Positions 1-23,794 of a stretch of 64,000 bases of DNA are shown piece by piece. The notes below the pieces were generated by a model. That model was not told the DNA's origin, ran no database searches, and saw only the letters and a list, made by a program, of their open reading frames with translations. This DNA is from an uncultured Mycoplasmatota bacterium. Lineage in GTDB: Bacteria > Bacillota_I > Bacilli_A > RF39 > UBA660. The position numbers and the translations under genes were made by a program. Where the stretch lies: positions 21,858 to 85,857 of the forward strand of contig UQVP01000001.1 of assembly GCA_900544605.1 (NCBI GenBank), read 5' to 3'. Positions within the stretch are counted from its first letter, which is position 1. Each line of letters opens with the position of its first letter.

Positions 1-962
1 TTGTTTTTAATATATTTCTTTAAAGTATTATTTAACTCCAATTTATCTTTAAAAAAGTTATCAAAATCTTTAACATCATAAATTTTTTTATTAGATAAAT
101 TTAAATTATCAAAAGACACAAAATTTATATATTTCCCAGGAAATAATTCTTCCAGTGAAAACATATATTTTTTATCTTTCTCTAATCCTTGGGAAATATT
201 ATATTCAACTATTTCATTTAAAGTTTCTTCATATCCTAACTTTATTTCATCATAATCATTAAATACAGTCAAATCAGAGTCTAAAAAATCTCTAACATTA
301 CTATTTTGTGTACTATTAACAATTATATTATCTGTATTAGGATATACATATATTTGATCTAATTTTTTTAGACTTAGTTGAGTATTAACATCAAAAATTC
401 TAATACTTTCTATTTCATCATCAAAAAATTCTAATCGCACTGGATTTTCCATAGATACAGGATATATATCAATTACAAAACCTCTAACAGCAAAATCACC
501 TGTTTTTTCTACCAAAGTTTCCTTTTCATATCCTAATTCTACCAAACTTTCAACTAATTTATTAAAATTAAATGTCATACCTGCTTTTAAATCTAAAATA
601 CCATTAAGAAATCTATGTTTGTCAGGAAGATATTTTAAATATCCCATTAAATTAGTTATAACTATATAGTTATTATTTTTAGATAACTCTATCATAGTTT
701 CAATTCTTTTTATTTTTAATTCAGGCGATGATGCTAAAACTTCACTAGTTAAAAAGTTATCCATGGGAAATAATAATACTTTTTCTGTATAATTATTTAT
801 ATATTGATACAAAGTATTAGCTTCATACAAACTATTTGTTACAACTAAAAAACCTTTATTTTTCTTTTTAAGTAATTCATAGCAATACATAGCTTTTAGT
901 TCACTATTTAAACCAACTATATTTGAAGCGTCAAAATTAAATTTTGAACTTATTATTTTCAT
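1..962 (-). CDS. mfd: Transcription-repair coupling factor Mfd, N-terminal part (5' partial: start codon at 960-962, gene runs off window start)
   Basis: Minus-strand translation from ATG 960-962 (RBS GGAGGTG at 967-975) gives ...VLLFPMDNFLTSEVLASSPELKIKRIETM... and ...ELGYEKETLVEKTGDFAVRGFVIDIYP...NPVRLEFFDDEIESIRIFD, matching remembered B. subtilis Mfd N-terminal motifs; sits downstream of pth as in Bacillus. Absent from the ORF track because there is no in-window stop. Confidence 0.8.
   Translation of the reverse strand, partial: MKIISSKFNFDASNIVGLNSELKAMYCYELLKKKNKGFLVVTNSLYEANTLYQYINNYTEKVLLFPMDNFLTSEVLASSPELKIKRIETMIELSKNNNYIVITNLMGYLKYLPDKHRFLNGILDLKAGMTFNFNKLVESLVELGYEKETLVEKTGDFAVRGFVIDIYPVSMENPVRLEFFDDEIESIRIFDVNTQLSLKKLDQIYVYPNTDNIIVNSTQNSNVRDFLDSDLTVFNDYDEIKLGYEETLNEIVEYNISQGLEKDKKYMFSLEELFPGKYINFVSFDNLNLSNKKIYDVKDFDNFFKDKLELNNTLKKYIKN
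130..145. promoter_or_regulatory. NBS-like 16-mer TATTTCCCAGGAAATA (copy A, inside mfd coding sequence)
   Basis: Exact 16-mer; inverted repeat TATTTCC-ca-GGAAATA; resembles B. subtilis Noc-binding site ATTTCCCGGGAAAT. Confidence 0.5.
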
Positions 963-1004
963 TAATACTCACCTCCTAACGACAAAAATGATACATTTGT
1001 ATCA

Positions 1005-1568
1005 TTAGTTCTTTTTATTATATTTATTCATTAATCTATCAAAATCCATTGAAAGAAAATCATCAATTATATTAGCGCTAATTTTAATAGCATGTTCTAA
1101 AATATCATACTCTTCTCTAGAAAATTTTCCTAAAACATAATCTTTTGTTTCAATACTTTTATCATTTGATATACCTATCTTTAAACGTTTATAATTATTA
1201 CTTCCAAGATTTGATTCTATATTTCTAAGTCCATTATGTCCACCACAACTACCGTGTTCGCGAAGTTTAATTTTTCCGATTGGTAAATCTAAATCATCAT
1301 TAATAATAAGAATATCGTCAATATTTATTTTATAAAATTTAACATAATCTCTAACCACTTCGCCAGAAAGATTCATATATTTTTGAGGTTTCAAAAATAT
1401 AACTTTTTCATTATTAATTGAAGTTTCACAAGATAAACCGCTAAATTTATTTTTATTAAACTCTAAACCGTTATTTGAAATATAATTATCAACAACCATA
1501 AATCCTACATTATGCCTTGTTTTTTCATATTCACATCCTGGATTACCTAATCCAACAATTAATTTCAT
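1005..1568 (-). CDS. pth: Peptidyl-tRNA hydrolase
   Basis: MKLIVGLGNPG...HNG motif family; conserved position next to mfd. Confidence 0.9.
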   Translation of the reverse strand: MKLIVGLGNPGCEYEKTRHNVGFMVVDNYISNNGLEFNKNKFSGLSCETSINNEKVIFLKPQKYMNLSGEVVRDYVKFYKINIDDILIINDDLDLPIGKIKLREHGSCGGHNGLRNIESNLGSNNYKRLKIGISNDKSIETKDYVLGKFSREEYDILEHAIKISANIIDDFLSMDFDRLMNKYNKKN

Positions 1569-1575
1569 AATTCAC

Positions 1576-2427
1576 CTACTTACTTATATTGTGATAAATA
1601 TTATATATTTCTTTTTTTGCAACATTTCTATCTTTCGCAACCAATTTTATAGCATCATTAACACTATTTCCTTCTTTTATATAAGCAGTAACATGCTCTG
1701 CTACACTTATATTTGTATAATCAACACAATCAGTATTTCCTTCAACAACTACAACAAATTCACCTTTTATATTATCAAATTTATCTATAACATCAACAAT
1801 TGTTCCTCGCACGACTTCTTCATATTTTTTACTTATTTCTTTAGAAATAGAAATTCGCCTATTTCCAAAAACTTTATAGATATCTTCCAAAGTTTCTTTT
1901 AATCGATGAGGTGATTCGTAAAAAATTATAGTTGCTTTTTCTTTTTTTAATTCTTCAAGTTCTTTGTTTCTTTTAGATTGTTTACTATTTAAAAACCCAT
2001 AAAATAAAAATGGCGATGGATTAAGTCCAGACGTAATTAAAGCAGGAATAAGTGCCGTAGGTCCTGGAAGACCAACTACATTATATCCCTTTTCGATAGC
2101 AATTTTTACTAAATCATAACCGGGATCACTTATAATCGGAGTGCCTCTATCTGTAACAATACCAACATCATGCCCATCATCTAAATATTTTAAAAACTTA
2201 TCTTTATTTTCTTTTTCATTATATTCATAACTTGATATAAGTTTTTTCTTAATATTTAAGTGATTTAGTAACAATGATGTAACTCTAGTATCTTCAGAAA
2301 AAATTACCTCAACCATTTTTAATGTATTAACAGCTCTTAATGTAATATCTTCCAAATTTCCGATTGGAGTTGGAATTAAATATACAGTTGGGCTTCCATC
2401 GTAACTTTTTTGAAACATACTTTTCAC
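1576..2427 (-). CDS. rsmI: 16S rRNA (cytidine1402-2'-O)-methyltransferase RsmI (tetrapyrrole-methylase fold)
   Basis: VYLIPTPIGNLEDITLRA... N-terminus typical of RsmI/YabC. Confidence 0.85.
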   Translation of the reverse strand: MKSMFQKSYDGSPTVYLIPTPIGNLEDITLRAVNTLKMVEVIFSEDTRVTSLLLNHLNIKKKLISSYEYNEKENKDKFLKYLDDGHDVGIVTDRGTPIISDPGYDLVKIAIEKGYNVVGLPGPTALIPALITSGLNPSPFLFYGFLNSKQSKRNKELEELKKEKATIIFYESPHRLKETLEDIYKVFGNRRISISKEISKKYEEVVRGTIVDVIDKFDNIKGEFVVVVEGNTDCVDYTNISVAEHVTAYIKEGNSVNDAIKLVAKDRNVAKKEIYNIYHNISK

Positions 2428-3146
2428 CTCTCAAAATATTTTAAAACTTCTTTTGTATATTTTCCATTTTCATCATGAACAATTAAATTTTCTAGAATTT
2501 TTAAACCTGGATTTCCATTTTTTCTACCTTCAACCAAGACCATATTAGCCTCTTTTCCTATTTTAGGATAAATAAACCTTATTTTTTTAGGCTCGATATT
2601 ATGGTTTCGCATTGAACATAAAATATCTACTAATCTATCAGGTCTATGAACGATTGCGACCACACCATTATTTTTCAATAATTTTCTAGATATTTTAAAT
2701 AAATCTTCTAAATTTAATTTTACTTCATGGCGTGCGATTGTTTTTGCATCATTTTTATTTAATTTAGATTGTTCACATACTTTAAAAAATGGAGGATTAC
2801 AAGTTATCACATCAAATGAATCACTTTCTATATTTTTACTTAACTCATTTATATCATCATTTATTATTGTTATCTGTTCTAAAAGATTATTCTCTAAAAC
2901 TGACTCTTTTGCTAGTTCAGCGATATCCTTTTGAATTTCTACACCAATTATTTTAGCATTTGTTTTTGTAGATAAAATAAGTGGAATCGGTCCATTTCCA
3001 CAGCCTATATCCATTATTTTTGTTATATTTTTATTTAAAGTAACAAAATTAGGTAATAAAACCGAATCTAAAGAAAAATTAAAACTTTCTGTATCTTGAA
3101 AAATATACATGTCATTATATCCTAATAAATAGTTTTTAACTTTCAT
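2424..3146 (-). CDS. Class I SAM-dependent methyltransferase, YabB/TrmN6-like
   Basis: DIGCGNG SAM motif and NPPF catalytic motif; overlaps neighbours by 4-11 nt (operon). Confidence 0.7.
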   Translation of the reverse strand: MKVKNYLLGYNDMYIFQDTESFNFSLDSVLLPNFVTLNKNITKIMDIGCGNGPIPLILSTKTNAKIIGVEIQKDIAELAKESVLENNLLEQITIINDDINELSKNIESDSFDVITCNPPFFKVCEQSKLNKNDAKTIARHEVKLNLEDLFKISRKLLKNNGVVAIVHRPDRLVDILCSMRNHNIEPKKIRFIYPKIGKEANMVLVEGRKNGNPGLKILENLIVHDENGKYTKEVLKYFER

Positions 3147-3930
3147 CTTCTAATTGAACCTCTATAACTCCTATTTTAGGAACATCTACTGAATATCGTT
3201 TATTTAGTATATCTAAATTTATTACTTTTCCTTCACCTTTTTCTGTTGAAACAGTTTGTCCAATTTTTGGCAAACCTTTTCTACAACATTTATAATTTTC
3301 ATCTTCATACTTTAAACAACATAATAAACGGCCACATAGACCATTTATTTTAGAAGGATTAAGCGCTATATTTTGATTTTTTGCCATATTAATAGATACT
3401 GAGTCTAAATCCTTTAAGAATCTTGAACAGCATAATTGTTGACCGCATAAACCACATCCACCAACTTCTTTAGCTTTATCTCTTGATCCTATCTGTCTTA
3501 ATTCAATTCTTGTTTTATATTTATTGGCTAATTCTTTGGCTAAATTTCTAAAATCTATTCTAGAATCTGATAAAAATCTAAAAAGTAATTGTTCACGATC
3601 AAAGGTATAATGTGCATCAACTAAAGTCATATTCAAGTTATTTTTTTCTACTAATTCTTTACAATAAATCAATGCTTTCTTTTCAATTTGCTGATTTTTT
3701 TTGTTTTTTAAAAAATCTTCTTTTGTGGCTATACGAACTATTTCATTTAATGGCTTATTATACTTCTTTTTATCGATATTATAATTTTCTAATTCAACCG
3801 TACCAAATTCTAAACCTTTTTCTGTTTCTACAATTACAGTAATTCCCCTTTTTAATTTTTTATTTCCTGGTAAGAAATTATACACAGTTTTGTTATTATT
3901 GTTAAATTTAATTCCAACTACTTCTATCAT
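3136..3930 (-). CDS. ricT: PSP1-domain protein RicT/YaaT
   Basis: Cys-rich PSP1 C-terminal block (CGLCGQQLCC...CGRLLCC); follows holB as in Bacillus. Confidence 0.8.
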   Translation of the reverse strand: MIEVVGIKFNNNNKTVYNFLPGNKKLKRGITVIVETEKGLEFGTVELENYNIDKKKYNKPLNEIVRIATKEDFLKNKKNQQIEKKALIYCKELVEKNNLNMTLVDAHYTFDREQLLFRFLSDSRIDFRNLAKELANKYKTRIELRQIGSRDKAKEVGGCGLCGQQLCCSRFLKDLDSVSINMAKNQNIALNPSKINGLCGRLLCCLKYEDENYKCCRKGLPKIGQTVSTEKGEGKVINLDILNKRYSVDVPKIGVIEVQLEDES

Positions 3931-4908
3931 TTAATCACCTTCTAACATTAAAATTAATTTGTCTAATACTAAATTAAGATTACAATTATACTTTAATCTA
4001 TCTTCTATTTTTAATATTGTTAATATTTTGTTTGCTAATTTATCAGTATCATTTTTTGAAGCTATTAATTCTAATATATCTTTGTTTTCTTCAAATATTT
4101 TTTCAGATTTTATTATTTTATAATTTAAAGCCTCATTGTATATTAACAGCAATATTTTTAAATACTCTTGAAAAAGTAATTTATCCTTTAAAATTATTGA
4201 ACATATTGTGTTTTCTTTTAAAAGTGTTTCTTTTTTGTTATTTTCTATAGATTTAATAAATTTAATAACAGCATTTAACAAATTTTTGCTTTGTTCATTT
4301 TGAATAAATTCCATTTGCTTTGTTTTGTCATCAAATATATAATTTGCTACACGTTCTAAATCTGTATTTCCTATTACATTTTTTTTATTTATTAATTTTA
4401 TTTTTTGACATCTTGAAGAAATTGTATCGAGTAACATCTCGGCATTATTTACAACTAATATTGCAACTATATTTTCTTCTGGCTCTTCTAAAAATTTCAA
4501 AATAGAATTTGCTGCTGCTTCATTCATTTTTTCTGCTTGATCTATAATATATACTTTTGTTGATGCTGTAACAGCTTTAGTAGAAAAATCTTTTTGAAGG
4601 CCACTTAATTGGTCTTTTTTTATCCACATACCATCTGGTTTTATTATTTCCAACTCTGTACTATTACCATTATCAATTTGTGTACAAAGATCACAATCAC
4701 CACAAAGATTATGTTCTATATTTTTTGTAGGACATAGTATGGCTTTAGCAAACGATAAAGCAAAATCATAACCTCTATAGTAATTATTAGTTTCTATAAT
4801 ATATGCATGAGAAATATTTTGATTTTTTAATTGTCTATATAATATTTCACAAGCTATATGATTATCTGCATAATATTCACTAAGCATATCATACTCCCTT
4901 TCTATCAA
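3931..4908 (-). CDS. holB: DNA polymerase III delta-prime subunit
   Basis: AAA+ clamp-loader like N-terminus with Cys cluster CGDCDLC; synteny holB-ricT. Confidence 0.8.
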   Translation of the reverse strand: MIEREYDMLSEYYADNHIACEILYRQLKNQNISHAYIIETNNYYRGYDFALSFAKAILCPTKNIEHNLCGDCDLCTQIDNGNSTELEIIKPDGMWIKKDQLSGLQKDFSTKAVTASTKVYIIDQAEKMNEAAANSILKFLEEPEENIVAILVVNNAEMLLDTISSRCQKIKLINKKNVIGNTDLERVANYIFDDKTKQMEFIQNEQSKNLLNAVIKFIKSIENNKKETLLKENTICSIILKDKLLFQEYLKILLLIYNEALNYKIIKSEKIFEENKDILELIASKNDTDKLANKILTILKIEDRLKYNCNLNLVLDKLILMLEGD

Positions 4909-5093
4909 AATACAAAAAATATCAATGCAATTAATGATAGTAATGCTGGCACCCCAAATATAGCAACATATAGGACAGTCAATATATTTAAAGGTACCAA
5001 AATTCCTAGTGGTACTGCAATTAAATTATAACCATAAATTAAGAACATTGAAAAAACTATTTTTTTTAATATTTGAAATATTTTTTTTAACAT
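4905..5093 (-). CDS. bofA: Small integral membrane protein, BofA-like (pro-sigma-K processing inhibitor family)
   Basis: 62 aa, two TM segments; ...GILVPLNILTVLYVAIFGVPALLSL... resembles BofA core GIHVPINLVT...GIPGIAALV; located after recR as bofA is in B. subtilis. Confidence 0.5.
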   Translation of the reverse strand: MLKKIFQILKKIVFSMFLIYGYNLIAVPLGILVPLNILTVLYVAIFGVPALLSLIALIFFVF

Positions 5094-5130
5094 ATATCTT
5101 CACCTCTATAAATGATATGAAGATAAATGC

Positions 5131-6045: not shown

Positions 6046-7743
6046 CTAATTGTAATTTATTGCATCACTAAATAAATTTTCTATTTCATTTTTATTTTCA
6101 TTTTCATTTTTTAATATCTGATCTATACTTTCTGTTTCTTCAACATATGTATATTGTTTAAGATGTGAATTAAATTCTTTCTTAATTATTTCCCAGGAAA
6201 TATTATCCGTTGAAATAACTTTATAATTATGTTTAAAAACTTTAGCAACTATTTCTTCTATTTTTAAAATATTTTCGTTAAATAGGTCACTATCAGTTTC
6301 TGTATTAAATACATAAATAAGATAATTTTCACTTGCTGCCTTTAAATTTCCATCTAGAATAATAGAAACGTATTTACTATAATCTAGATTTATCAAAAGA
6401 GGCTTTAAATCATCTTCTAATGATTTTATCTTTGTTAATTCTTTTTTATTAAATTTTGCTAAAGTATTATTGATTCTTATTTCCTTTATTTTTTTTAATT
6501 TTTCTTTTATTTCTCGGTTAATCGGTGTAAACGAATTATCAACTTTATATGAATTATTTTCTTTTTTTATTACAGTTTTTGATTCATTTTTATTTTCTAT
6601 TGGTCTTACTGAAAGGTTTTCTTTTATCAAATTTGATACATATTGTTTGTTTTGTGTTTTTTCATAATTGAGTAACTTTAAAATCAATAATTCAAATTGT
6701 AGTCTTTGTACTGTACCTTTTTTTATAACAGATAAATTTTGATTCATTGTATCTATCAAATCAATTAATTCTAATTTTGACAATATTCCAGACATATTTT
6801 TATATACCTCAGTATCATAGTTACTATCAATTAAATATTGTGGTGCTTCTTCAACTATTAATACATTTTTAAAAAACAATATTAATTCCTCTAAAATTTT
6901 AGTAAAGTTTTTACCAGTTTCATCAAAATTATCAATTTTTGTTAAAACTTCATAGACATTTTTATTTAAAATTTCTATTGCAAATTTAGATAATTCTTCT
7001 TGTGTTAGTGTTCCATTAATCAAATGAACATCTTCTACTGTTATTTCATTTTGTGTAAAAGATGAAACTTGATCAAGAATACTTAAAGAATCTCGCATTC
7101 CACCATCAGCTAATCTTGCTATTTCTCTTATACTATCATCTGTTATTTTTATATTTTCTTTATTACAAATATCTTTTAATCTTTTAAAAATACAATTATT
7201 ACTTATTTTTTTAAAATCAAATCGTTGACATCTTGATAAAATAGTTAAAGGTATTTTTTGAGGTTCAGTTGTTGCTAATATGAAAATAGCATGTTTTGGT
7301 GGTTCTTCTAATGTTTTTAATAGGGCATTAAAAGCACCTGTAGTAAGCATATGGACTTCATCAATTATATATATCTTATACTTTCCTAAAGAAGGTACTA
7401 AATTAACTTTATTACGTAATTCTCTTATTTCATCAACACCATTATTTGAAGCTGCGTCTATTTCTATAACATCCACGTGATTTTTATTAATATTTTGTGT
7501 ACAATTAACGCATTTATTACAAGCTACACCATCAACCAGGTTTTCACAGTTTACTGATTTTGCTAATATTTTTGCTATACTTGTTTTACCTGTTCCTCTA
7601 GGTCCCGTAAATAAATAAGCATGATTTATATTACCAAGTTTTAAAGAATTTAATAGTGTTTTTACTATTATATCTTGGCCTACCACATCAGAAAAATCTA
7701 TCGGTCTATATTTTCTATATAATGCTTGATACATATTAATCAC
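6046..7743 (-). CDS. dnaX: DNA polymerase III subunit tau/gamma
   Basis: Walker A GPRGTGKTS, zinc module CNKCVNC, SRC motif (LSRCQRF). Confidence 0.9.
   Translation of the reverse strand: MINMYQALYRKYRPIDFSDVVGQDIIVKTLLNSLKLGNINHAYLFTGPRGTGKTSIAKILAKSVNCENLVDGVACNKCVNCTQNINKNHVDVIEIDAASNNGVDEIRELRNKVNLVPSLGKYKIYIIDEVHMLTTGAFNALLKTLEEPPKHAIFILATTEPQKIPLTILSRCQRFDFKKISNNCIFKRLKDICNKENIKITDDSIREIARLADGGMRDSLSILDQVSSFTQNEITVEDVHLINGTLTQEELSKFAIEILNKNVYEVLTKIDNFDETGKNFTKILEELILFFKNVLIVEEAPQYLIDSNYDTEVYKNMSGILSKLELIDLIDTMNQNLSVIKKGTVQRLQFELLILKLLNYEKTQNKQYVSNLIKENLSVRPIENKNESKTVIKKENNSYKVDNSFTPINREIKEKLKKIKEIRINNTLAKFNKKELTKIKSLEDDLKPLLINLDYSKYVSIILDGNLKAASENYLIYVFNTETDSDLFNENILKIEEIVAKVFKHNYKVISTDNISWEIIKKEFNSHLKQYTYVEETESIDQILKNENENKNEIENLFSDAINYN
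6187..6202. promoter_or_regulatory. NBS-like 16-mer TATTTCCCAGGAAATA (copy B, inside dnaX coding sequence)
   Basis: Exact 16-mer; encodes ISWEII in dnaX (minus strand), a different frame and peptide from copies A and D. Confidence 0.5.
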
Positions 7744-8207: not shown

Positions 8208-8224
8208 TTTTTATCACCTTTATA

Positions 8225-8242
8225 ATGTTTCACGTGAAACAT
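8225..8242. promoter_or_regulatory. parS: parS site 1 (aTGTTTCACGTGAAACAt, perfect palindrome)
   Basis: Exact match to the Bacillus-type parS consensus TGTTNCACGTGAAACA. Confidence 0.8.
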
Positions 8243-8257
8243 AAATCTATTTTGCAA

Positions 8258-8275
8258 TGTTCCACGTGGAACATC
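8258..8275. promoter_or_regulatory. parS: parS site 2 (aTGTTCCACGTGGAACAt, symmetric variant)
   Basis: 16/16 palindrome with CACGTG core, one symmetric substitution relative to site 1; abuts the 3' U tract of ffs. Confidence 0.7.
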
Positions 8276-8277
8276 AT

Positions 8278-8355
8278 AAAAAAAGCACACACATTTAGAG
8301 GATCTTAAGGCTGCTATTTTCCAATTCTGACCTGGTTCAAACATAAATGTTGTGC
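8278..8355 (-). ncRNA. ffs: Signal recognition particle RNA, small (4.5S-type)
   Basis: Minus-strand RNA gcacaacauuuauguuugaACCAGGUCAGaauuGGAAaauAGCAGCCuuaagauccucuaaaugugugugcUUUUUUU carries the conserved domain-IV signature CCAGGUCAG...GGAA...AGCAGCC of E. coli 4.5S; termini pair (gcacaacauuua / uaaaugugugugc) and end in a U tract. Ends are approximate (+/-5 nt). Confidence 0.8.
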
Positions 8356-8434
8356 ATTAATAATATATTATATTTTTAATATTTTTTCAACACTTATATG
8401 GTCTAATTTATAATTAAATTAAAAATTACTATAT

Positions 8435-8452
8435 ATGTTTCACGTGAAACAT
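8435..8452. promoter_or_regulatory. parS: parS site 3 (TGTTTCACGTGAAACA inside a 26-bp palindrome atatatgtttcacgtgaaacatatat)
   Basis: Perfect core identical to site 1. Confidence 0.8.
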
Positions 8453-8473
8453 ATATAATCTCTTATATAAATT

Positions 8474-8489
8474 ATTTCCCAGGAAATAA
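8474..8489. promoter_or_regulatory. NBS-like 16-mer TATTTCCCAGGAAATA (copy C, intergenic between parS sites 3 and 4)
   Basis: Exact 16-mer. Confidence 0.5.
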
Positions 8490-8505
8490 TTTTAAAAAGA
8501 AAAGA

Positions 8506-8523
8506 ATGTTTCACGTGAAACAT
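8506..8523. promoter_or_regulatory. parS: parS site 4, also the stem of a bidirectional intrinsic terminator just downstream of gyrA
   Basis: agaaTGTTTCACGTGAAACAttct flanked by T runs on both strands; gyrA stop at 8529. Confidence 0.75.
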
Positions 8524-8528
8524 TCTTT

Positions 8529-10991
8529 TTATTTTTCATTTGTTGATTCAACGACATCTTCGGTTCCATCATTATCATCTTTTTTTAATATTGATATATT
8601 TCCGACCTTTTGGTTATCTTTTAAATTTATCAATCTTACACCTTGAGCTACTCTTCCAGTGTTAGATACTTGCGTTAAATTTAAACGTATGATTATTCCA
8701 GAATTAGTAACAATCATTAAATCTTCATCACCTTCAACCATTCTGAAAGCAACTATATTACCGTTTTTTTCTGTTATATTTAAAGCTTTTACACCTTTGC
8801 TACCACGATGTGTCATTCTGTATTCATCTATGCTAGTTTTCTTTCCGTATCCATTTTCAGTAACTATTAATACGTTTTTATTTGGATCAGAAACTTCACA
8901 TCCTACAGCTTTTCCATCATCAACTTCAATTCCCTTAACACCGGCAGCACTTCTACCCATAACTCTGATTTCATCTTCTTTAAATCTGATCATTCTTCCA
9001 TTTGAAGATGCTATTAATATTTGATTATTTCCGGTAGTTTTCTTAACATCTAGTAATTCATCATCTTCTCTTAGTGTTATTGCAAATTTACCGTTTGATC
9101 TAATACTATCAAATTCTTCAAGCTTAGTTCTCTTAACTAAACCTGTTTGTGTACAAAATACAATATATTTAGATTCGTCATTGTTTTCTATCTTTAACAT
9201 AGCTTTAACAACTTCTTCTTTTTCTATAGGTAATAAATTAATTATTGGAATTCCTTTTGATTGTCTATTAAATAAAGGAATTTCATAACCTTTTAATCTA
9301 TATACTTTTCCTTTATTTGTAAAGAATAATATATAATCATGAGTTGTCATAGAAAGTAAATATTGTACAAAATCTTCTTCATTTGTAGACATTCCTTTAA
9401 TTCCAACTCCACCTCTATTTTGAGATTTAAAATTATCACTTAATACACGTTTTATATATCCCTTGTTAGTCAAAGTAATTACAATATCTTCAACCGGTAT
9501 TAATGATTCATCTTCTATATAATCTATAGCTGTCATATCAATTTTTGTTCTTCTATCATCACTGTATTTATTTTTAATTTCAGTTAATTCTAACTTAATT
9601 ATATCTAATACTTTTTGTTCAGAACCTAAAATTGCCTTTAATTCTTTAATACGTTCTAATAAATCATTTAATTCATTTTCAATCTTATCTTTTTCTAGAC
9701 CAGTTAATCTTCTTAACTTCATTTCCAAAATAGCTTCACATTGAATTTCATCTAAAGGAAATTTAGACATTAACTGTTCTTTAGCTATATCATCTGTCTT
9801 TGAAGCTTTAATTATCTTAATAACTTCATCAATATTGTCTAAAGCAACTTTTAATCCTTCTAAAATATGAACTCTAGCTTCACATTTGTTCAAATCAAAT
9901 CTTGTTCTTCTTATAATAATTTCTTTTTGGTAGTCAATATATTTGGTTATGATATCTTTAAGTCCAAGAGTTTTTGGAACACCATTATCAAGCATTAAAA
10001 ATATAATTCCATAATTTGTTTGAAATTGAGTATGTTTATATAAATTATTTAAAACAACTTGTGGATTTGCATCCCTTTTTAATGTAATAGTTATTTTAAT
10101 ACCATCTTTTAAGTCGGTATGATAATCAGAAATACCATCTATTGTTTTATTATGTACTAATTCTGCAACTTTATTTTTTAATTCCATTGTATTAACACCA
10201 TATGGAACTTCATCAATTACTATATAATTTTTTCCATCTTTTTCTTCTATAGTAGCATTACTTCTTATAGTAATAGTACCACGGCCTGTTTCATAAGCTT
10301 TTTTTATACCACTATTACCTAAAATTATGCCACCAGTAGGAAAATCTGGCCCTTTTATATATTCCATCAAACCTAAAGTATCAATGTCTGGATTATCAAT
10401 ATAAGCAATACAACCATCTATTACTTCACCTAAATTATGTGGTGGAATATTAGTTGCCATACCCACAGCAATACCCATTGTTCCATTAACTAATATGTTA
10501 GGAAACCTTGATGGTAATATTGATGGTTCTTTTTCTGATTCATCAAAGTTTGGAATAAAATTAACAGTATCTTTATTAATATCTCTTAGTAATTCTAATG
10601 ATATTTTTGATAATCTAGATTCAGTATAACGCATTGCTGCTGCTCCATACCCTTCAATATTACCAAAATTACCGTGTCCGTCCACTAACATATGACGATA
10701 ATTAAAATCTTGAGCCATTCTTACCATTGCTTCATATATTGAAGAATCTCCATGTGGGTGATATTTTCCCATTACATCTCCGACTATACGAGCTGATTTT
10801 TTATGAGGTTTGTCTGGTGTATATCCAGATTCATACATTGACCATAAAATTCTACGATGAACTGGCTTTAAACCGTCACGTAAATCTGGTAAAGCACGTG
10901 ATACGATTACACTCATAGAATACTCTAAAAATGATGATTTTACCTCTTCTACTATGTTATTTTCTTCTAATCTATCTCTACTATGATCCAT
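8529..10991 (-). CDS. gyrA: DNA gyrase subunit A
   Basis: 820 aa; N-terminal QRDR-region motifs and C-terminal beta-pinwheel repeats; gyrB-gyrA synteny. Confidence 0.95.
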
Positions 10992-14185: not shown

Positions 14186-14635
14186 TTATTGGTTTTTTCG
14201 ACTTCTTAAAATTGATTCTAAACGAGATGCACGTAAAATTTGACTTTCTAATGTAAATATAGAAATATCTAAATTCAAATTAGTATCATTTTTAAAAGTA
14301 ATATTGGAACCCTTATTACATCTAACATAATTTTTTAAATTATTTAAAGAAATCCAAGCACATTCTACTAATCTTGGTGATGCGGTTGGAAAAAAGATAA
14401 TACTTCTACTCTCTTCTACTATGATAGGTAATTTATAGCTCATTCCTAACATATTTTTAGTACCTTCATATCTACCTTGATAATTACTCCCATAATAACA
14501 ACAGCTTTCATTTATAATTTCAAAAACAGGTTTATCAATTATGTATTCATTTCCTATTTCTATTATTCTAGTTGTGGTTTCATCTATAGGAACGATTGCT
14601 AAAGTACCAATATTAATTTCATAACTATGCAACAT
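14186..14635 (-). CDS. comK: ComK-family competence transcription factor homolog (likely true start at ATG 14633-14635 rather than the ORF-track start at 14695)
   Basis: ...SYEINIGTLAIVPIDE...CCYYGSNYQGR...KLPIIVEESRSIIFFPTASPRLVECAWISL... matches B. subtilis ComK blocks (SYEVNGATIAVLPEE / CRFFGSSYAGR / KPPIMVDPSNQIFLFPTLSSTRPQCGWIS, recalled from memory). A strong RBS AGGGAGGTG lies 7 nt upstream of the internal Met (M21 of the track ORF). Confidence 0.75.
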   Translation of the reverse strand: MLHSYEINIGTLAIVPIDETTTRIIEIGNEYIIDKPVFEIINESCCYYGSNYQGRYEGTKNMLGMSYKLPIIVEESRSIIFFPTASPRLVECAWISLNNLKNYVRCNKGSNITFKNDTNLNLDISIFTLESQILRASRLESILRSRKNQ

Positions 14636-14700
14636 TAAATTCACCTCCCTACTTATAAATTTCCACAAAAAATGGAAATTTCCTTTCTTATACATTAATT

Positions 14701-16042: not shown

Positions 16043-17404
16043 TTATTTAATTTGATTAACAATTTTATTAATTTGTTCTTCTAATTCATGATTAGTTTTT
16101 ATTTCTTTTTTTATTTTATCTACTGAATGCATAACAGTTGTATGATCTTTTCCACCAAATTCTAATCCTATTTTAGGCAATGATTCAGCTAAATAAGTTC
16201 TACAAATATACATTCCTACTTGCCTTGGTACAGAAATACTTGCCATCCTTTTTTTACTTTTAATATCTTCAACAGATATATTGTAAGCATTTGCAATTAA
16301 TTGTTGTACTTGTTCAATCTTATTTTTTGATATAATACTTTTTACAAAATAGTCTTTTAGTGCTTCTGTTGCAAGTTCAATTGTAATATCAGACCCATTC
16401 ATTATGGTTGCATAAGCGAAAACTCTAGTTATTGCACCTTCTAATTTTCTAATATCAGATGTACAATTGCTGGCAATATATTCTTTAACCTCTATAGGAA
16501 AATCATTGCACACATCATTAGCTTCTATTTTTTTGTCTATTATATCCATTCTTAATTTAAAATCTGGTGGTAGAATATCTATTGTTAATCCCCAATTGAA
16601 TCTTGTTCTAAGTCTTTCTTCTAATTTTTTTAAATCATCTGGTGATCTATCAGAAGAAATAATTATTTGCTTATTATTACAATGTAATTCATTAAATGTG
16701 TTGAAAAATTCTTGTTGTGTTTTGCTAGCTATTTCTAGGTATTGAATATCATCAATCATTAAAACATCAACATTTCTATATTTATTTTTAAATTCATCAA
16801 CAGCATCAAAATTATTTTCATCTTTATTTTTTCTATAAATATTTAGAAAATCATCAACAAATTTTTCACTTGTGACATATAAAACTTTTTTATTACTATT
16901 TTTAACAATATAATTACCTATCGCGTGCATTAAATGTGTTTTTCCTAGTCCACTACTACCATATATAAACAAAGGATTGTACATAAAACCAGGTTGTTCT
17001 GCTACCGCTAAAGAAGTAGCCTTCGCAAATTTATTACTATTTCCCACAATAAAATTATCAAAAGTATATTTAGGGTCGAGATTAGATTCATATAGATTAT
17101 TAGATGGAACCCCTACTTTATCAACGTCAATTGTAACATTTTTAACAATTTCTTCTTCTAATAAATATTCAAATTTAAAATTGCTACCAGTTATCTCTGT
17201 GAAAATTTCTTCTATTAAATTATTATAATTTTCTTTTAAATGTTTCTTATGTACTTGCATGGGAACTAAAATTTTGGCTGTATTATCGTTTAGTTCTATT
17301 AATTTAGTGTCCATAAACCATGTTTCATATAGTATAGGATCTAATTCAGCTTTTATTTTTTCAAGAAACAAGCTCCATATTGTATTAATATCCACACAAA
17401 ACAC
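16043..17404 (-). CDS. dnaA: Chromosomal replication initiator protein DnaA
   Basis: AAA+ Walker A GSSGLGKTHL, C-terminal DnaA-box-binding domain; flanked by DnaA-box clusters. Confidence 0.95.
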   Translation of the reverse strand: MFCVDINTIWSLFLEKIKAELDPILYETWFMDTKLIELNDNTAKILVPMQVHKKHLKENYNNLIEEIFTEITGSNFKFEYLLEEEIVKNVTIDVDKVGVPSNNLYESNLDPKYTFDNFIVGNSNKFAKATSLAVAEQPGFMYNPLFIYGSSGLGKTHLMHAIGNYIVKNSNKKVLYVTSEKFVDDFLNIYRKNKDENNFDAVDEFKNKYRNVDVLMIDDIQYLEIASKTQQEFFNTFNELHCNNKQIIISSDRSPDDLKKLEERLRTRFNWGLTIDILPPDFKLRMDIIDKKIEANDVCNDFPIEVKEYIASNCTSDIRKLEGAITRVFAYATIMNGSDITIELATEALKDYFVKSIISKNKIEQVQQLIANAYNISVEDIKSKKRMASISVPRQVGMYICRTYLAESLPKIGLEFGGKDHTTVMHSVDKIKKEIKTNHELEEQINKIVNQIK

Positions 17405-17758
17405 CTCACTTTAATAACAGTTAACATTATTTTACACCAAAAAAATATAAAAACCAATATTAAACTGTGGAAAAAAGCAAAAATCGACAAATTAACACAA
17501 TTTTCCACACAAATTGACATTAAATAATAAGATAAAAACATACTTTTCAACATAAGATGTGGAAAAGTAATTAACATATAATTTTGATTGTTATTAAGTT
17601 TTCCACATATACTGTGGAAAATATGGTTAGATATTATAAAATATATTAAAAATACTTGTGGAAAAAAGTTATAATAATAGCTAAAAAATATTTGACAAAT
17701 AAGAAAAATATCTATATAATGGTTAAAGCGATGAAATATAGGCTTTAGGAGGTGGAAT
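17405..17758. promoter_or_regulatory. oriC: oriC part 2 (dnaA-rpmH intergenic): cluster of at least 7 DnaA boxes (TTTTCCACA / TGTGGAAAA)
   Basis: Boxes at 17466-17474, 17501-17509, 17557-17565, 17599-17607, 17613-17621 and 17657-17665, plus ATATCCACA at 17389-17397. A 0A-box-like TGTCGAT (reverse complement of aaatcgaca at about 17483-17492) lies between boxes. Confidence 0.8.
17692..17720 (+). promoter_or_regulatory. Consensus sigma-A promoter for rpmH-rnpA (TTGACA-17-TATAAT)
   Basis: ttgaca at 17692-17697, 17-nt spacer, tataat at 17715-17720. Confidence 0.7.
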
Positions 17759-17929: not shown

Positions 17930-18280
17930 ATGAAAAAAGAAAATATAATAAAGAAAAGCTTAGATTTTGATAGAATAATAAAAAATAATAAATCATATAA
18001 ATATAAAGATTATATAATTTATTTAGAAAAAACAGAAAATAATACTTATCATTTTGGTTTATCTGTTGGTAAAAAAATAGGTAATGCTGTAACAAGAAAT
18101 AAAATCAAGAGACAGTTAAAAAATATAATTGATAAAAATAACTATGAAAAAGGAATTAATTGTATTATAATAGTAAGGAAAGGTTTATTAGAAAAAACTT
18201 ATCAAGAAAAAGAAAAAATTTTACTTGAAGCATTTCACAAATTAAATATAATTAAGGAGAAAAATAATGAAAAAAAATAA
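17930..18280 (+). CDS. rnpA: Ribonuclease P protein component
   Basis: 116 aa basic protein immediately after rpmH. Confidence 0.9.
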   Translation: MKKENIIKKSLDFDRIIKNNKSYKYKDYIIYLEKTENNTYHFGLSVGKKIGNAVTRNKIKRQLKNIIDKNNYEKGINCIIIVRKGLLEKTYQEKEKILLEAFHKLNIIKEKNNEKK

Positions 18281-19205: not shown

Positions 19206-19803
19206 ATATGAAGGAAAAAATAAAGAAGAAATAGAAAAACAAATGTTAAATGAATTAAATACTTCTAAAGAAAATTTATTTATTCGTGAAAAAGAAGAAG
19301 ATGGTTCATTATTTAAAGCTAAAAAATATATTTATGAAGTAGCAAAAAAGGAAGACATTATAGTTTTTGTAAAAGATTATATAGAAGAACTAAGCAATAA
19401 CTTTGGAGTTCAAATTAAAAGTGAAGTTAGATTTAAAGAAGATATCTTATATATTGTTTTAGTATCAGATAATAATGCTATTATAATAGGTAAAGAAGGA
19501 AGAACTTTATCAGCGCTTCAAACCTTAATAAAAAGTACGATTAACAACAAGATAGGATTTAATATCAAAGTAAATCTTGATGCTTCAAACTATAAAGCAA
19601 AAAAACAAAAAAATTTAGAATACGAAATAAAAAAAATAGCGAAGGATGTTTTAAAATCACATGTCGATGTTAAATTGGATCCAATGAATTCTTACGATCG
19701 CAGATGTGTACACAATGTTGTTGCAAAATTTGAAGATTTAAAATCAGAAAGTTTTGGGGAAAATCCAAACAGATATGTAGTAATAAGTTATAAAGGGGAA
19801 TAA
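19189..19803 (+). CDS. jag: Jag/KhpB RNA-binding protein (KH and R3H domains)
   Basis: Synteny after yidC; C-terminal R3H-like block ...YDRRCVHNVV... Confidence 0.8.
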   Translation: MQMLYKYEGKNKEEIEKQMLNELNTSKENLFIREKEEDGSLFKAKKYIYEVAKKEDIIVFVKDYIEELSNNFGVQIKSEVRFKEDILYIVLVSDNNAIIIGKEGRTLSALQTLIKSTINNKIGFNIKVNLDASNYKAKKQKNLEYEIKKIAKDVLKSHVDVKLDPMNSYDRRCVHNVVAKFEDLKSESFGENPNRYVVISYKGE

Positions 19804-19873
19804 AACCCTTTATTTTTTTGTTGACTAAAATACTATTTAATACTAAAATATATCTAGCAAAGGAGAAATTATT

Positions 19874-21220
19874 ATGGAAGATACTATAGCTGCAATTGCA
19901 ACATCACTAGGTGTAGGTGCAATATCAATTATTAGAGTAAGTGGTCCGGAAGCAATAAAAATAGTAAATAATATTTTTAAAGGTAAAGATTTGACAAAGC
20001 AAAAAACACACACTATAACCTATGGGCATATAATTGAAAATGATAAAATTATAGATGAAGTTTTGATATCTATTATGAAGTCCCCTAAAAGTTTTACAAC
20101 AGAAGATACCGTAGAGATTAATTGTCACGGTGGAATATCAACAACAAATAAAGTATTAGAGTTATTATTAAATAACGGTTGTCGTTTAGCAGCCCCAGGT
20201 GAATTTACTAAAAGAGCTTTTTTAAATGGGAGAATCGATTTAATAGAAGCTGAAGGTGTAATGGATTTAATTAATTCTAAAACAGAAAAAGCTCGAAATT
20301 TAGCAATAAATCAGCTAAGTGGAACTTCTTCTGAACTTATTAAAAAATTAAGAAAAGAAATAGTTGAAATCCTTGCTAATATAGAAGTAAATATTGATTA
20401 TCCAGAATATGATGATATAGCCGTATTATCTACACAAATAATTAAACCTCAAATAACTAATATAATAAAAGAATTAAAAGAAATAATAGATCATAGTGAA
20501 AATACTAAGATTATAAAAGATGGTATAGATGTTTTAATTCTTGGTCGTCCAAATGTAGGAAAAAGTAGTTTATTAAATAGATTACTAGAAGAAGATAAAG
20601 CAATAGTGACCGATATAGAAGGAACAACACGAGATATAGTTGAAGGAAAAATAAATTTAGATGGAATTATTTTAAATATAATAGATACTGCAGGAATTAG
20701 ACAAACAGAAGATGTTGTTGAAAAAATAGGTGTAGAAAAAAGTTTAAGTTTGATAGATAAAGCTGATTTAGTATTGTTTTTATTAAATAATAATGAAGAT
20801 ATAACCCCAGAAGATAAAAATATAATAAATCAGTTAAAAAATAAAAATCATATAATTGTTATTAATAAATGTGATTTAACTAAAAAGTTGGATTTAAACG
20901 ATAATGATTGCGTATATATAAGTGCTAAAGAAAATATAGGTATAGATGATTTAAAAAATAAAATAAAAGAACTTTATAATCTAGAAAAAATAGAAACAGA
21001 AGATTTATCTTATTTAAGCAGTGCTAGAAGTATTTCTTTATTAAAACAAGCTATGCAGTCTTTAAAAAATGCCGATAAAGGTATAGATGATAATTATCCA
21101 ATAGATATGGTAGAAATAGATATTAAAGATAGTTGGAATATATTAGGTGAAATAATTGGGGAAACTTATGAAGAAGAGTTAATAGATCAATTATTCAGTC
21201 AATTTTGTTTAGGAAAGTAG
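19874..21220 (+). CDS. mnmE: tRNA modification GTPase MnmE
   Basis: G-domain GRPNVGKSSLLN, C-terminal CxGK motif (CLGK). Confidence 0.95.
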   Translation: MEDTIAAIATSLGVGAISIIRVSGPEAIKIVNNIFKGKDLTKQKTHTITYGHIIENDKIIDEVLISIMKSPKSFTTEDTVEINCHGGISTTNKVLELLLNNGCRLAAPGEFTKRAFLNGRIDLIEAEGVMDLINSKTEKARNLAINQLSGTSSELIKKLRKEIVEILANIEVNIDYPEYDDIAVLSTQIIKPQITNIIKELKEIIDHSENTKIIKDGIDVLILGRPNVGKSSLLNRLLEEDKAIVTDIEGTTRDIVEGKINLDGIILNIIDTAGIRQTEDVVEKIGVEKSLSLIDKADLVLFLLNNNEDITPEDKNIINQLKNKNHIIVINKCDLTKKLDLNDNDCVYISAKENIGIDDLKNKIKELYNLEKIETEDLSYLSSARSISLLKQAMQSLKNADKGIDDNYPIDMVEIDIKDSWNILGEIIGETYEEELIDQLFSQFCLGK

Positions 21221-21228
21221 GTGAAACT

Positions 21229-23097
21229 ATGGAATATGAAATAATTGTTGTTGGTGGTGGACATGCTGGGTGTGAAGCCTCTTTAGCAAGTGCTAGAAAA
21301 AGCCATAAAACATTATTAATAACAGGAAATATAAAAAATATTGCAGATATGCCATGTAATCCATCAATTGGTGGCAGTGCTAAAGGCATAGTTGTAAGAG
21401 AAATTGATGCTTTAGGTGGTGAAATGGGTGTCAATGCTGATAAAGGTCAAATTCAAATAAAAATGTTAAACAGTGGAAAAGGTCCAGCAGTACAAGCTTT
21501 GCGTGCTCAAGGTGACAAAGTAACATATCCTAAAGAAATGTTAAAAACATTATCATCAACACCAAATTTAGAAATTAAAGAATCTTTGGTAGAAGATTTA
21601 ATTGTTGAAAAAAATAAAATAAAAGGTGTTATTTTAGAAAATGGAGAAAAAATTTATGCCCAAGCTGTTATTTTAACAACAGGAACATATTTAAAAGCTG
21701 ATATTTTGGTTGGTGATACAAGAACAAGACAAGGTCCTCATGGCGAAAGACCAAGTATGCACTTAAGTGATAATTTAGAAAAATTAGGTTTTAAAATTAT
21801 AAGATTAAAAACCGGAACACCACAAAGAATAGATAAAAATACAATTGACTTTACAAAAACAAGAGAAGAAAAAGGTGACAATAAGTTATTATCATTTAGT
21901 TTTGATAGAAAACCACAATATAAAATAGAAGATCAAATATCATGCCATTTAATTTATACAACACCGGAAACACATAAAATTATCAGAGATAATCTTCATA
22001 AAGCTAGTATGTATGGTGGATTAGATGATATAAAAGGTATAGGTCCAAGATATTGTCCTTCTATTGAAGACAAAGTTGTAAGATTTGCAGATAAAGAAAA
22101 ACATCAATTGTTCTTAGAACCAGAAAGTTTATACTATGATGATATATATTTACAAGGTTTTTCTACAAGTATGCCTCACGATGTTCAAGAATTAATGGTT
22201 CATAGTTTACCAGGGTTAGAGAATGCTAAGATATTAAAATATGCCTATGCTATTGAATATGATGCAATATATCCAACACAATTGAAACAATCTCTTGAAA
22301 CAAAGTTAATAGATGGTCTATATACAGCTGGACAAATAAATGGAACTAGTGGTTATGAAGAAGCTGCATGTCAAGGTTTGATTGCCGGAATAAATGCATC
22401 TTTGAAATTAGAAGGAAAAGAACCATTAATTTTAAAAAGAAATGAAGCTTATATAGGTGTTTTAATAGATGACTTAGTAACAAAAGGGGTAAGAGATCCT
22501 TATCGTTTATTAACATCAAGAGCAGAATATCGTTTATTATTAAGAAATGATAATGCCGATTTAAGATTAAGAGAGATTGGTCATAATGTTGGTTTAATAG
22601 ATGAAGATAGATATCAAAAATTCTTAAATAAAAAGGAAAAAATAAAAGAATTAAAAGAACTATTACAAAATAATAAATTAAATCCTAATGCTGAAGTAAA
22701 TGAATTTCTAACATCAATCAATTCTGCAATCTTAAAAGATGGAATAACTTTTTATAATTTATTAAGACGACCTGAAATAGATATGAATATTGTTAAAAAA
22801 TATTTGGATATTGATTATAGTGAAGAGGTAATAGAAGAAGTTGAGATAGAAATAAAATATGAAGGATATATAGTTAAAGCATTAAAAGAAGCAGAAAAGC
22901 TAAATAATTTGGAAAACAAAAAAATACCTGATGATATTAATTATGATGCAATCCATAATATAGCAAGTGAAGCAAAGCAAAAACTAAAAGAAGTAAGACC
23001 TACAACAATAGCTCAAGCCTTAAGAATAAGTGGTGTAAATCCTGCCGATATTTCAATTTTAATGGTTTATTTAAAAAAGGAGTATAGTCGTGAATAA
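21229..23097 (+). CDS. mnmG: tRNA uridine 5-carboxymethylaminomethyl modification enzyme MnmG (start moved to MEYEIIVVGGGHAGCEA)
   Basis: FAD-binding GGGHAGCEA; the track ORF starts 8 codons earlier inside the mnmE 3' end. Confidence 0.95.
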   Translation: MEYEIIVVGGGHAGCEASLASARKSHKTLLITGNIKNIADMPCNPSIGGSAKGIVVREIDALGGEMGVNADKGQIQIKMLNSGKGPAVQALRAQGDKVTYPKEMLKTLSSTPNLEIKESLVEDLIVEKNKIKGVILENGEKIYAQAVILTTGTYLKADILVGDTRTRQGPHGERPSMHLSDNLEKLGFKIIRLKTGTPQRIDKNTIDFTKTREEKGDNKLLSFSFDRKPQYKIEDQISCHLIYTTPETHKIIRDNLHKASMYGGLDDIKGIGPRYCPSIEDKVVRFADKEKHQLFLEPESLYYDDIYLQGFSTSMPHDVQELMVHSLPGLENAKILKYAYAIEYDAIYPTQLKQSLETKLIDGLYTAGQINGTSGYEEAACQGLIAGINASLKLEGKEPLILKRNEAYIGVLIDDLVTKGVRDPYRLLTSRAEYRLLLRNDNADLRLREIGHNVGLIDEDRYQKFLNKKEKIKELKELLQNNKLNPNAEVNEFLTSINSAILKDGITFYNLLRRPEIDMNIVKKYLDIDYSEEVIEEVEIEIKYEGYIVKALKEAEKLNNLENKKIPDDINYDAIHNIASEAKQKLKEVRPTTIAQALRISGVNPADISILMVYLKKEYSRE

Positions 23098-23794
23098 AAA
23101 GGAATTTATACAAGAAATAAATAAATTAGGTATTCAATTAACTGATGAACAATTACACCAACTAGATAAATATTATCAACTTTTAATAGAATGGAATAAA
23201 GTTATGAATTTAACTGGGATAACAGAAGAAAAAGAAGTATATTTGAAACATTTTTATGATAGTTTGACAATTGCTAAAGTTATAGATTTAACAAAAGAAA
23301 AAAGTTTGTGTGATGTAGGAAGTGGAGCTGGGTTTCCTGGAATGGTATTAAAAATAGTGTTTCCTAATCTAAAGGTTACATTAGTTGATTCTTTAAATAA
23401 GAGAATAAAGTTTTTAACAGAAGTAGCTAATGAACTAAATTTAAAAGATATTGCTTTAGTTCATGCTAGAGCAGAAGATTTTGCTAAGAATAACCGTGAA
23501 AAATTTGATGTTGTAACAGCTCGTGCTGTCGCACCAATAAATGTGTTATTAGAATATTGTTTACCTTTAACAAAAGTTGGGAAATATTTTATTGCCTTAA
23601 AAGGAAATATTTCCCAGGAAATAATTTTATTAAATAATTCATTAACAAAAATAGGTGGGAAATTAATTAATTCACAAGAATTTTTACTACCAATAGAAAA
23701 TAGTAATCGTTCATTATTAGTAATTACGAAAGAAAATCCAACTTCAAAAAAATATCCACGTCATCCAAAAGATATAAAAAATAACCCTCTATAG
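23090..23794 (+). CDS. rsmG: 16S rRNA (guanine527-N7)-methyltransferase RsmG
   Basis: SAM motif DVGSGAGFPG; mnmG-rsmG synteny. Confidence 0.9.
   Translation: MNKKEFIQEINKLGIQLTDEQLHQLDKYYQLLIEWNKVMNLTGITEEKEVYLKHFYDSLTIAKVIDLTKEKSLCDVGSGAGFPGMVLKIVFPNLKVTLVDSLNKRIKFLTEVANELNLKDIALVHARAEDFAKNNREKFDVVTARAVAPINVLLEYCLPLTKVGKYFIALKGNISQEIILLNNSLTKIGGKLINSQEFLLPIENSNRSLLVITKENPTSKKYPRHPKDIKNNPL
23608..23623. promoter_or_regulatory. NBS-like 16-mer TATTTCCCAGGAAATA (copy D, inside rsmG coding sequence)
   Basis: Exact 16-mer; encodes NISQEII in rsmG. Confidence 0.5.

Follow-up and report, generated by a model that had tools for sequence, protein, structure and literature searches.

The stretch of DNA analyzed here, a window of 64,000 nucleotides from an uncultured Mycoplasmatota bacterium (GenBank assembly GCA_900544605.1, contig UQVP01000001.1, positions 21,858 to 85,857), is the replication-origin region of a genome of ~25% GC, with a GC skew changing sign at 16-18 kb. 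Its minus strand carries mfd and pth and, farther along, dnaX, tadA, ffs, gyrA, gyrB, recF, comK, dnaN and dnaA, while its plus strand carries rpmH, rnpA, yidC, jag, mnmE, mnmG and rsmG, followed by a ParB-family gene and uvrB, an order which is that of the Firmicutes origin cluster. Within this region, a 16-mer, TATTTCCCAGGAAATA, occurs four times, in coding as well as intergenic DNA. From its sequence, we consider that these four copies are very probably nucleation (loading) sites, that is, Noc-binding sites (NBS), for the Noc-type ParB paralogue predicted at 23886-25190. The features on which this reading is built are the following, the cluster of DnaA boxes serving as the distance reference:

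130-145: NBS variant 1, TATTTCCCAGGAAATA, exact match, inside the minus-strand gene mfd, ~17.4 kb left of oriC
6187-6202: NBS variant 2, TATTTCCCAGGAAATA, exact match, in the 3' part of the minus-strand gene dnaX, ~11.3 kb left of oriC
8473-8488: NBS variant 3, TATTTCCCAGGAAATA, intergenic, between two parS sites and just downstream of gyrA, ~9.0 kb left of oriC
17388-17665: oriC DnaA-box cluster, seven TTTTCCACA/ATATCCACA boxes adjoining dnaA, at the GC-skew switch
23608-23623: NBS variant 4, TATTTCCCAGGAAATA, inside the plus-strand gene rsmG, 263 bases upstream of the noc-like gene, ~6.1 kb right of oriC
23886-25190, plus strand: noc-like gene, Noc-type ParB paralogue of 434 amino acids (Pfam ParB_N, 2.7e-34; HTH_ParB, 3.7e-34)

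An exact search of the window returned the four copies announced by the initial annotation and no other, the third of its coordinates (8474-8489) being off by one base; as it had stated, this third copy is flanked by parS sites, at 8436-8451 and 8507-8522. CCCAGG is read on the plus strand in all four, an orientation that we rejected as a signal, its probability by chance being 1 in 8 and both orientations being found in related species. Our base-composition estimate, ~8e-5 exact matches on both strands, agrees with the chance expectation of about 1e-4 proposed earlier, and shuffled sequence gave 0.15 matches to the 16-mer even with 2 mismatches allowed. When the pattern ATTTCCNNGGAAAT was searched with up to 2 mismatches, the window yielded the four sites and two chance-level matches, and at the same tolerance no degenerate copy of the 16-mer was found in the window. 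Only two 16-mers are present at least three times in the whole window, this motif and parS. The three copies located in genes are translated as had been described, as ELFPGKYI in mfd (minus strand; identified by the TRCF/CarD domains in L133), NISWEII in dnaX (minus strand) and NISQEII in rsmG (plus strand). These embedded sites use rare codons, namely Gly GGG in mfd (5% of Gly codons), Ser TCC in dnaX (2% of Ser codons) and both Ser TCC (2%) and Gln CAG (8%) in rsmG, and selection therefore acts on the DNA and not on the peptide. Comparison of the four copies disclosed no conservation of their flanks beyond ~3 bases and they are therefore not the footprint of a repeat element, in line with the earlier dismissal of a mobile-element origin. 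A mobile element, a tandem repeat and an RNA motif were thus rejected as candidates, the signal recognition particle (SRP) RNA being the sole Rfam match in the window.

The published NBS duplex is GGA-TATTTCCCGGGAAATA-TCC, also written GGATATTTCCCGGGAAATATCC (PMC7383237). We defined the NBS as the 16-bp palindrome TATTTCCCGGGAAATA, with a 14-bp core ATTTCCCGGGAAAT, and wrote its pattern as TATTTCCNNGGAAATA. As first noticed in the initial annotation, the window 16-mer is one central base away from this sequence: it matches at 15/16 positions and the sole change, G9 to A, lies at the dyad, where CCCGGG becomes CCCAGG by a single CpG-to-CpA (equivalently TpG) transition. What distinguishes an NBS from a parS is the base found at positions 1 and 6 in each half-site. 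Adenine 1 and cytosine 6, the NBS-type bases, stand in the two half-sites of every copy, and hence the 16-mer is not of the parS type (TGTTNCACGTGAAACA, with G1 and A6). The sites of the clade separate into two discrete classes, without any parS/NBS hybrid (49, 41 and 0), a weak test since a hybrid needs two mutations.

Regarding the protein, its best relatives in the PDB are Noc from Geobacillus (7NG0, 7e-64) and Noc from B. subtilis (7OL9, 1e-54), Spo0J coming behind at 3e-52. It contains a ParB-type N-domain binding cytidine triphosphate (CTP), with the GERRxR and ENxQR motifs, as well as a helix-turn-helix (HTH) domain, and the CTP-binding residues R64 and N96, which correspond to R89 and N121 of B. 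subtilis Noc, are invariant in 17 homologues. The four positions governing specificity (Caulobacter ParB numbering, Jalal et al.) read as follows:

Position 173: R in ParB, Q in Noc, Q133 in the window protein
Position 179: T in ParB, K in Noc, K139 in the window protein
Position 184: A in ParB, K in Noc, N144 in the window protein
Position 201: G in ParB, R in Noc, R161 in the window protein

It has been established that Q173 reads adenine 1 and R201 reads cytosine 6, that a single lysine, at 179 or 184, suffices for NBS specificity, and, by deep mutational scanning, that R173 is invariable among parS-specific variants while Q173/R201 with K179 are found in the NBS-specific class. With Q133, K139 and R161, a specificity for NBS without parS binding is therefore predicted for the window protein, and its earlier assignment to the ParB/Noc family is upheld, on the Noc side, by its closest solved relatives and by these residues. 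The noc-like gene directly follows rsmG (23090-23794), as in the ancestral Firmicutes origin cluster, and the same order is found in four related species.

In order to follow the sites across species, a genome scan was made with one genome per species and for the exact variant 16-mer only; it returned at least 120 stretches, which represent a sample of positions and do not include the source genome. Among the matches listed, ~22 stretches come from metagenome-assembled genomes (MAGs) of 23-30% GC related to the window, and all 22 are syntenic with window 1-24 kb, their 16-mers being located beside the 3' end of gyrA, at the same dnaX position, in the jag-mnmE gap or in the pth region. The other matches listed belong to Noc-bearing Bacilli (Halobacillus, Oceanobacillus, Planococcus, Lactobacillus and others) or are scattered. 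The relatives carrying the 16-mer are labelled as Bacilli, Erysipelotrichaceae, Bacillales or Tenericutes MAGs, and in these the variant stands beside canonical TATTTCCCGGGAAATA and parS, both NBS forms being mixed in the same arrays. In several Lactobacillus (L031, L088, L106, L125), the variant 16-mer is located in the recF-gyrB gap, also origin-proximal. Although the MAGs to which two contigs, L094 and L056, belong are labelled Muribaculaceae, their gyrA/dnaX region is 72-77% identical to that of the window and they carry parS/NBS; in appearance, these are contigs of the present Bacilli clade that were mis-binned.

Orthologous positions are informative for three of the sites. At the rsmG site, canonical TATTTCCCGGGAAATA is found at the orthologous position in an 85%-identical sister species (L131), and degenerate versions with 1 and 2 mismatches stand at the same position in the more distant L129 and L127. 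At the dnaX site, the same 16-mer falls on the same codons of two relatives, L065 and L020, the DnaX C-termini of which are only 42-51% identical to that of the window, and is absent in more distant species. Site 3 has its orthologues in intergenic NBS next to parS in eight contigs (L009, L044, L051, L092, L094, L104, L121, L122). The replacement of the variant by the canonical NBS at orthologous positions speaks for a functional site equivalent to the canonical NBS, and together with the rare codons it bears out the nucleotide-level conservation that had been proposed.

The third site belongs to a composite array. Indeed, the tadA-gyrA gap (8208-8528) contains three perfect parS, one symmetric variant of parS and one NBS, arranged around ffs:

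8226-8241: parS TGTTTCACGTGAAACA, adjoining the tadA start
8258-8273: parS symmetric variant TGTTCCACGTGGAACA
8276-8361, minus strand: ffs, SRP RNA gene (RF00169)
8436-8451: parS TGTTTCACGTGAAACA, 21 bases left of NBS 3
8507-8522: parS TGTTTCACGTGAAACA, 18 bases right of NBS 3, in the stem of a terminator-like hairpin right after the gyrA stop codon

This hairpin (8499-8530) is bidirectional in appearance, with T-runs on both sides of its parS stem, and parS at 8507-8522 may double as the gyrA terminator.

A scan of metagenomes for an NBS of whatever centre lying 5-35 bases after a parS retrieved at least 119 contigs in which NBS and parS alternate downstream of gyrA. The 119 contigs listed, which form ~100 sequence clusters, are all of low GC content (median, 26.5%), and 118 are syntenic with gyrA-ffs-tadA-dnaX; they hold 319 NBS and 406 parS, neighbours of unlike type being mostly 22-38 bases apart, start to start. 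In some instances, a unit made of one parS and one NBS is repeated in tandem:

L092 3558-4054: composite unit of 64 bp, 7.8 copies
L214 2915-3392: composite unit of 61 bp, 7.8 copies, with a CCCAGG centre
L194 1-326: composite unit of 72 bp, 4.5 copies

Outside the clade, none of the 96 tiles listed has a parS within 150 bases of the 16-mer, and NBS-parS pairing is thus a feature of this clade, of which we found no published description in a limited literature search. In the clade contigs (L137-L255), the NBS are flanked by AAA(T/A) before and (A/T)TTT after the 16-mer, with a single base in 82-87% of the sites at three positions, values that duplicated array units may inflate. Given these conserved A/T flanks, the recognized or selected element may be ~24 bp long.

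The any-centre survey also defines the status of the central base. Among the contigs listed, NBS centres are CG in 267 cases, CA/TG in 51 (16%) and TA in one, while parS centres are CG in 400 cases and CA in 4, with AG and GA as singletons; the CA/TG transition is therefore a tolerated state of the NBS and is far rarer in parS. In the window species, all strains seen (L001-L006, L133, L134) have the variant centre at each of the four sites, whereas only 1/88 of the contigs listed with at least two NBS is all-variant. The window protein does not differ in its DNA-binding region from P0005 and P0008, its homologues in the sister species. Two causes of the A centre were examined and rejected, a general difference in CpG mutation, CpG depletion being the same in the sister species that has the canonical site (0.54 vs 0.53), and avoidance of a CCGG restriction target, CCGG being unavoided (21 observed vs 17 expected). 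The absence of CCCGGG is itself uninformative because only 0.3-0.4 occurrences are expected in the available DNA, and almost all CCCGGG of the AT-rich clade genomes belong to an NBS. The A centre at all four sites would fit with a CCCGGG-specific restriction system, which is one candidate cause. One relative, L129 (GCA_949505625.1, CATBQD010000004.1), has zero CCGG in 21.5 kb against an expectation of ~8, a sign that a restriction system specific for CCGG may be active, and its rsmG site, TATTGCCCAGGAAATA, is CCCAGG-centred; restriction avoidance can hence act on the centre of an NBS. In the window, GATC is under-represented (83 vs 145 expected), with a CpG observed/expected ratio of 0.54.

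Several observations weigh against assigning these sites and this protein to the Noc system. The best NCBIfam model, TIGR04285 (nucleoid_noc), scores 298.2 bits, under its cut-off of 315; it matches profile positions 1-204 of 255 only, because a linker separates off the C-terminal domain. The four sites lie within 24 kb, unlike those of B. subtilis or S. aureus, which are scattered along a chromosome arm. The variant centre at all four sites, set against a clade frequency of 16% (0.16^4, ~7e-4), is more than selection for a binding site alone can account for. Finally, the window protein has no counterpart to residues 1-25 of Noc (MKHSFSRFFGLGEKEQE...), which include, in B. subtilis, an N-terminal amphipathic helix (MKHSFSRFFGLG..., residues 1-10) needed for membrane binding and function and very highly conserved in homologues. 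Residues 3-5 of the window protein align to residue 26 of Noc, so that it starts ~23 residues later, directly at the ParB N-domain; there is no upstream canonical start (ATG/GTG/TTG) extending the open reading frame, and 17/17 aligned homologues begin in the same MDNNRKVVEL-like manner, without the helix. Classical membrane tethering is therefore doubtful.

An AlphaFold2 model, used solely for domain boundaries, divides the protein into a confident N-domain and HTH (1-203), a disordered region (204-387, predicted local distance difference test [pLDDT] <50) and a small C-terminal domain made of a helix and two strands (388-431, pLDDT ~85), which aligns weakly with that of Erysipelothrix Noc. 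The linker (204-387, ~185 residues) keeps short motifs across homologues of 50-75% identity, FNIPxxPIIE, xFFN with the invariant F302, and SPNFGIPxFDD. Many homologues have the FF motif in the form G(K/R)FFN(L/I), which resembles SRFFGLG of the Noc helix; this likeness is weak in the window species (SNFFNIP) and serves as a lead only.

Three other accounts of the motif itself can be opposed to NBS. The 16-mers share 12/16 bases with parS and are located among parS sites, and they could be seen as divergent parS bound by canonical ParB; however, adenine 1 and cytosine 6, present in both half-sites, are the bases against which ParB discriminates, intermediate or hybrid sites amount to zero among ~100, and the two classes stay distinct across ~725 sites surveyed in metagenome contigs, making this account most improbable. 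They could also serve some unrelated DNA-binding protein, such as an origin anchor of the RacA/RicO/RocS type or a transcription factor, as operators or anchor sites. Proteins of the RacA/RicO family are not known to recognize this motif. In the window, three of the four sites are deep within genes and not in promoters, and the sequence matches the NBS with a member of its reader family encoded 263 bases away, so that this second account is very unlikely, even if origin-proximal site sets are known, with nine ricS within ~700 kb around oriC described in a preprint on S. aureus (bioRxiv 10.64898/2026.03.06.710092).

The third account holds that the motif is kept as a target of restriction-modification or of Dcm-type (CCWGG) methylation, the centre being indeed CCAGG, as the initial annotation had remarked. 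That resemblance is incidental since a 5-base site cannot explain 16-24 conserved bases: CCWGG is not avoided but over-represented 2.2-fold (29 observed vs 12.9 expected in the window, 4 of which are within the 16-mer), and what is conserved comprises 16 bases plus A/T-specific flanks. The lack of CCGG in the 21.5 kb of L129 and its CCCAGG-centred rsmG site indicate that avoidance may shape the centre base; in the window species, CCGG being unavoided, such an effect would explain at most an A instead of a G at the centre, and as an account of the whole motif it carries hardly any credit. The observation is confirmed and its first interpretation supported, the site being an NBS one transition away from the consensus.

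Taking the four 16-mers as NBS, a sequence of events can be proposed from the sequences and from what is known of Noc. The change at the dyad, from CpG to CpA, would be the easiest mutation in a CpG-depleted genome, and one evidently tolerated by the clade. A Noc dimer would read adenine 1 and cytosine 6 of the half-sites through Q133 and R161, with K139 as a permissive residue, then bind CTP via R64 and N96, close into a clamp and slide onto the adjacent DNA. Loaded from sites at -17, -11, -9 and +6 kb, Noc could coat ~30-40 kb around oriC, beside ParB loaded at the interleaved parS. Binding, spreading and the role of the resulting complex are inferred here.

What this complex would be for is a separate matter. 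The readable DNA of the species amounts to ~83 kb, the window being extended by ~9 and ~10 kb beyond its two ends. In this DNA, the NBS stand at -17.4, -11.3, -9.0 and +6.1 kb relative to oriC, all within ~18 kb, and no further NBS was found in the other ~59 kb examined. The initial annotation had expected sites scattered in coding DNA around the chromosome as in B. subtilis; the available ~83 kb runs counter to this expectation, with a tight origin-proximal clustering and a pairing with parS. It is a serious possibility, somewhat short of an even chance, that the protein is an organizer of the origin domain or a regulator of initiation acting with ParB at a composite, centromere-like parS/NBS locus, a proposal that competes with classical nucleoid occlusion and leaves the binding-site reading untouched. 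In its favor are the confinement of the sites to about +/-18 kb of oriC, the occurrence of at least 22 of the ~24 low-GC clade matches listed in DNA syntenic with window 1-24 kb, the parS-NBS pairs of at least 119 contigs, 118 of them at gyrA-ffs-tadA/dnaX and some built of tandem units, the lack of an N-terminal membrane helix, and the control of replication initiation known for S. aureus Noc (PMC5540599). On the other side, the confinement is seen in ~83 kb of the species and, among the matches listed, in a scan made for the variant 16-mer, so that NBS may exist elsewhere in the genome; the conserved FF-containing motif of the linker could still bind the membrane; and Erysipelothrix Noc, also without the helix, is encoded in a classical noc-soj-spo0J operon. 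The loss of the helix and the long disordered linker with conserved motifs would suggest a task different from nucleoid occlusion along the whole chromosome, for instance organization of the origin domain, anchoring via a new partner or initiation control. We tentatively picture the Noc of this clade as an origin-restricted partner of ParB, the NBS and parS being possibly alternating units of one composite centromere-like array by gyrA/ffs that would load two CTP clamps side by side.

Such a partnership presupposes a reader for parS. The Noc-like protein was compared by tblastn with the window, with composite-array contigs totalling ~0.72 Mb and with the noc neighbourhoods of four species, and no other ParB-family gene was disclosed, no database-wide protein search having been made. 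At the noc locus, soj and spo0J are absent in all four window-clade species examined, and the noc-soj-spo0J order was seen only in Erysipelothrix (L069). The perfectly conserved parS arrays would imply a parS reader elsewhere in the genome. We also considered a single reader with dual specificity for parS and NBS and judged it unlikely, R173 being invariable among parS-specific variants and hybrid sites amounting to zero, although the latter is a weak test as two mutations are needed.

The system is thus to be compared first with the Noc-NBS of B. subtilis and S. aureus, with which it shares the same 16-bp palindrome bar one central base, sites within coding DNA, a ParB-family protein in which Q, K and R occupy the specificity positions and the CTP-binding residues are conserved, and a gene directly downstream of rsmG (gidB). 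It differs by a protein devoid of the N-terminal membrane-targeting helix, of 434 amino acids against about 283 for B. subtilis Noc and with a disordered linker of ~185 residues before its C-terminal domain, by the absence of adjoining soj-spo0J, and by sites that are few, perfect, paired with parS and, in the DNA read, within about +/-18 kb of oriC, whereas ~70 (B. subtilis) or 41 (S. aureus) NBS extend over the chromosome's origin-proximal half to two-thirds and are lacking near the terminus. Like ParB (Spo0J)-parS, it is an origin-proximal cluster of 16-bp palindromes, multiplied in array-like fashion and presumably serving as loading sites for a CTP-dependent sliding clamp; unlike it, the 16-mer has A/C and not G/A at positions 1/6, and the adjacent protein has Q and not R at position 173. 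Erysipelothrix Noc (L069 6628-7377, 249 amino acids) likewise begins at the ParB N-domain without the helix and has Q, K and R as well as a similar C-terminal domain, which means that helix loss is not limited to the long-linker clade; it is however short, without the long linker, and belongs to an rsmG-noc-soj-spo0J operon (L069 4963-7377), the Spo0J of which has R and G at the specificity positions. SlmA and its binding sites (SBS) in E. coli, RacA-ram and RicO-ricS similarly rely on specific chromosomal sites that place a nucleoprotein complex with respect to the origin or the terminus and link the chromosome with division or with the membrane, with unrelated folds (TetR, MerR-like) and unrelated motifs. 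The kind is known, NBS with a Noc-type reader; what is new is the perfect sites, restricted to the origin region in the DNA read, their alternation with parS and a helix-less, long-linker Noc.

As to the organism, the neighbouring DNA encodes SpoIID, SpoIIID, SpoVT, BofA, SpoIIR and MreB, and on the basis of these sporulation genes and of MreB it is to be viewed as a spore-forming rod of the Bacilli. Genes identical to those of the window are present in human-gut metagenome assemblies. Inside the origin cluster, a comK homologue (14186-14695) lies between recF and dnaN and is conserved in related species. To the right of the window end, a strain-variable integrative element (L135 1-9900) carries a serine recombinase, an integrase, HTH regulators and a SpoVG-like gene, and replaces the sequence seen in another strain (L136).

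Finally, while most of the work on Noc-NBS concerns B. subtilis and S. aureus, in which sites cover much of the chromosome and the DNA is tethered to the membrane via the N-terminal helix, the present uncultured lineage (~100 sequence clusters among the contigs listed) displays NBS near oriC, paired one-to-one with parS, and a Noc without this helix. Its Noc-like proteins are at present named generic ParB/Spo0J partition proteins and its sites are invisible to gene callers. The lineage is a natural case in which to test how two CTP-dependent clamps, which are paralogous and have near-identical sites, are insulated from each other when loaded ~10-20 bp apart, as well as whether the function of Noc can be separated from membrane binding. 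It may also offer a view of the evolution of NBS from parS, and the alternating arrays could be a living picture of NBS arising from duplicated parS.

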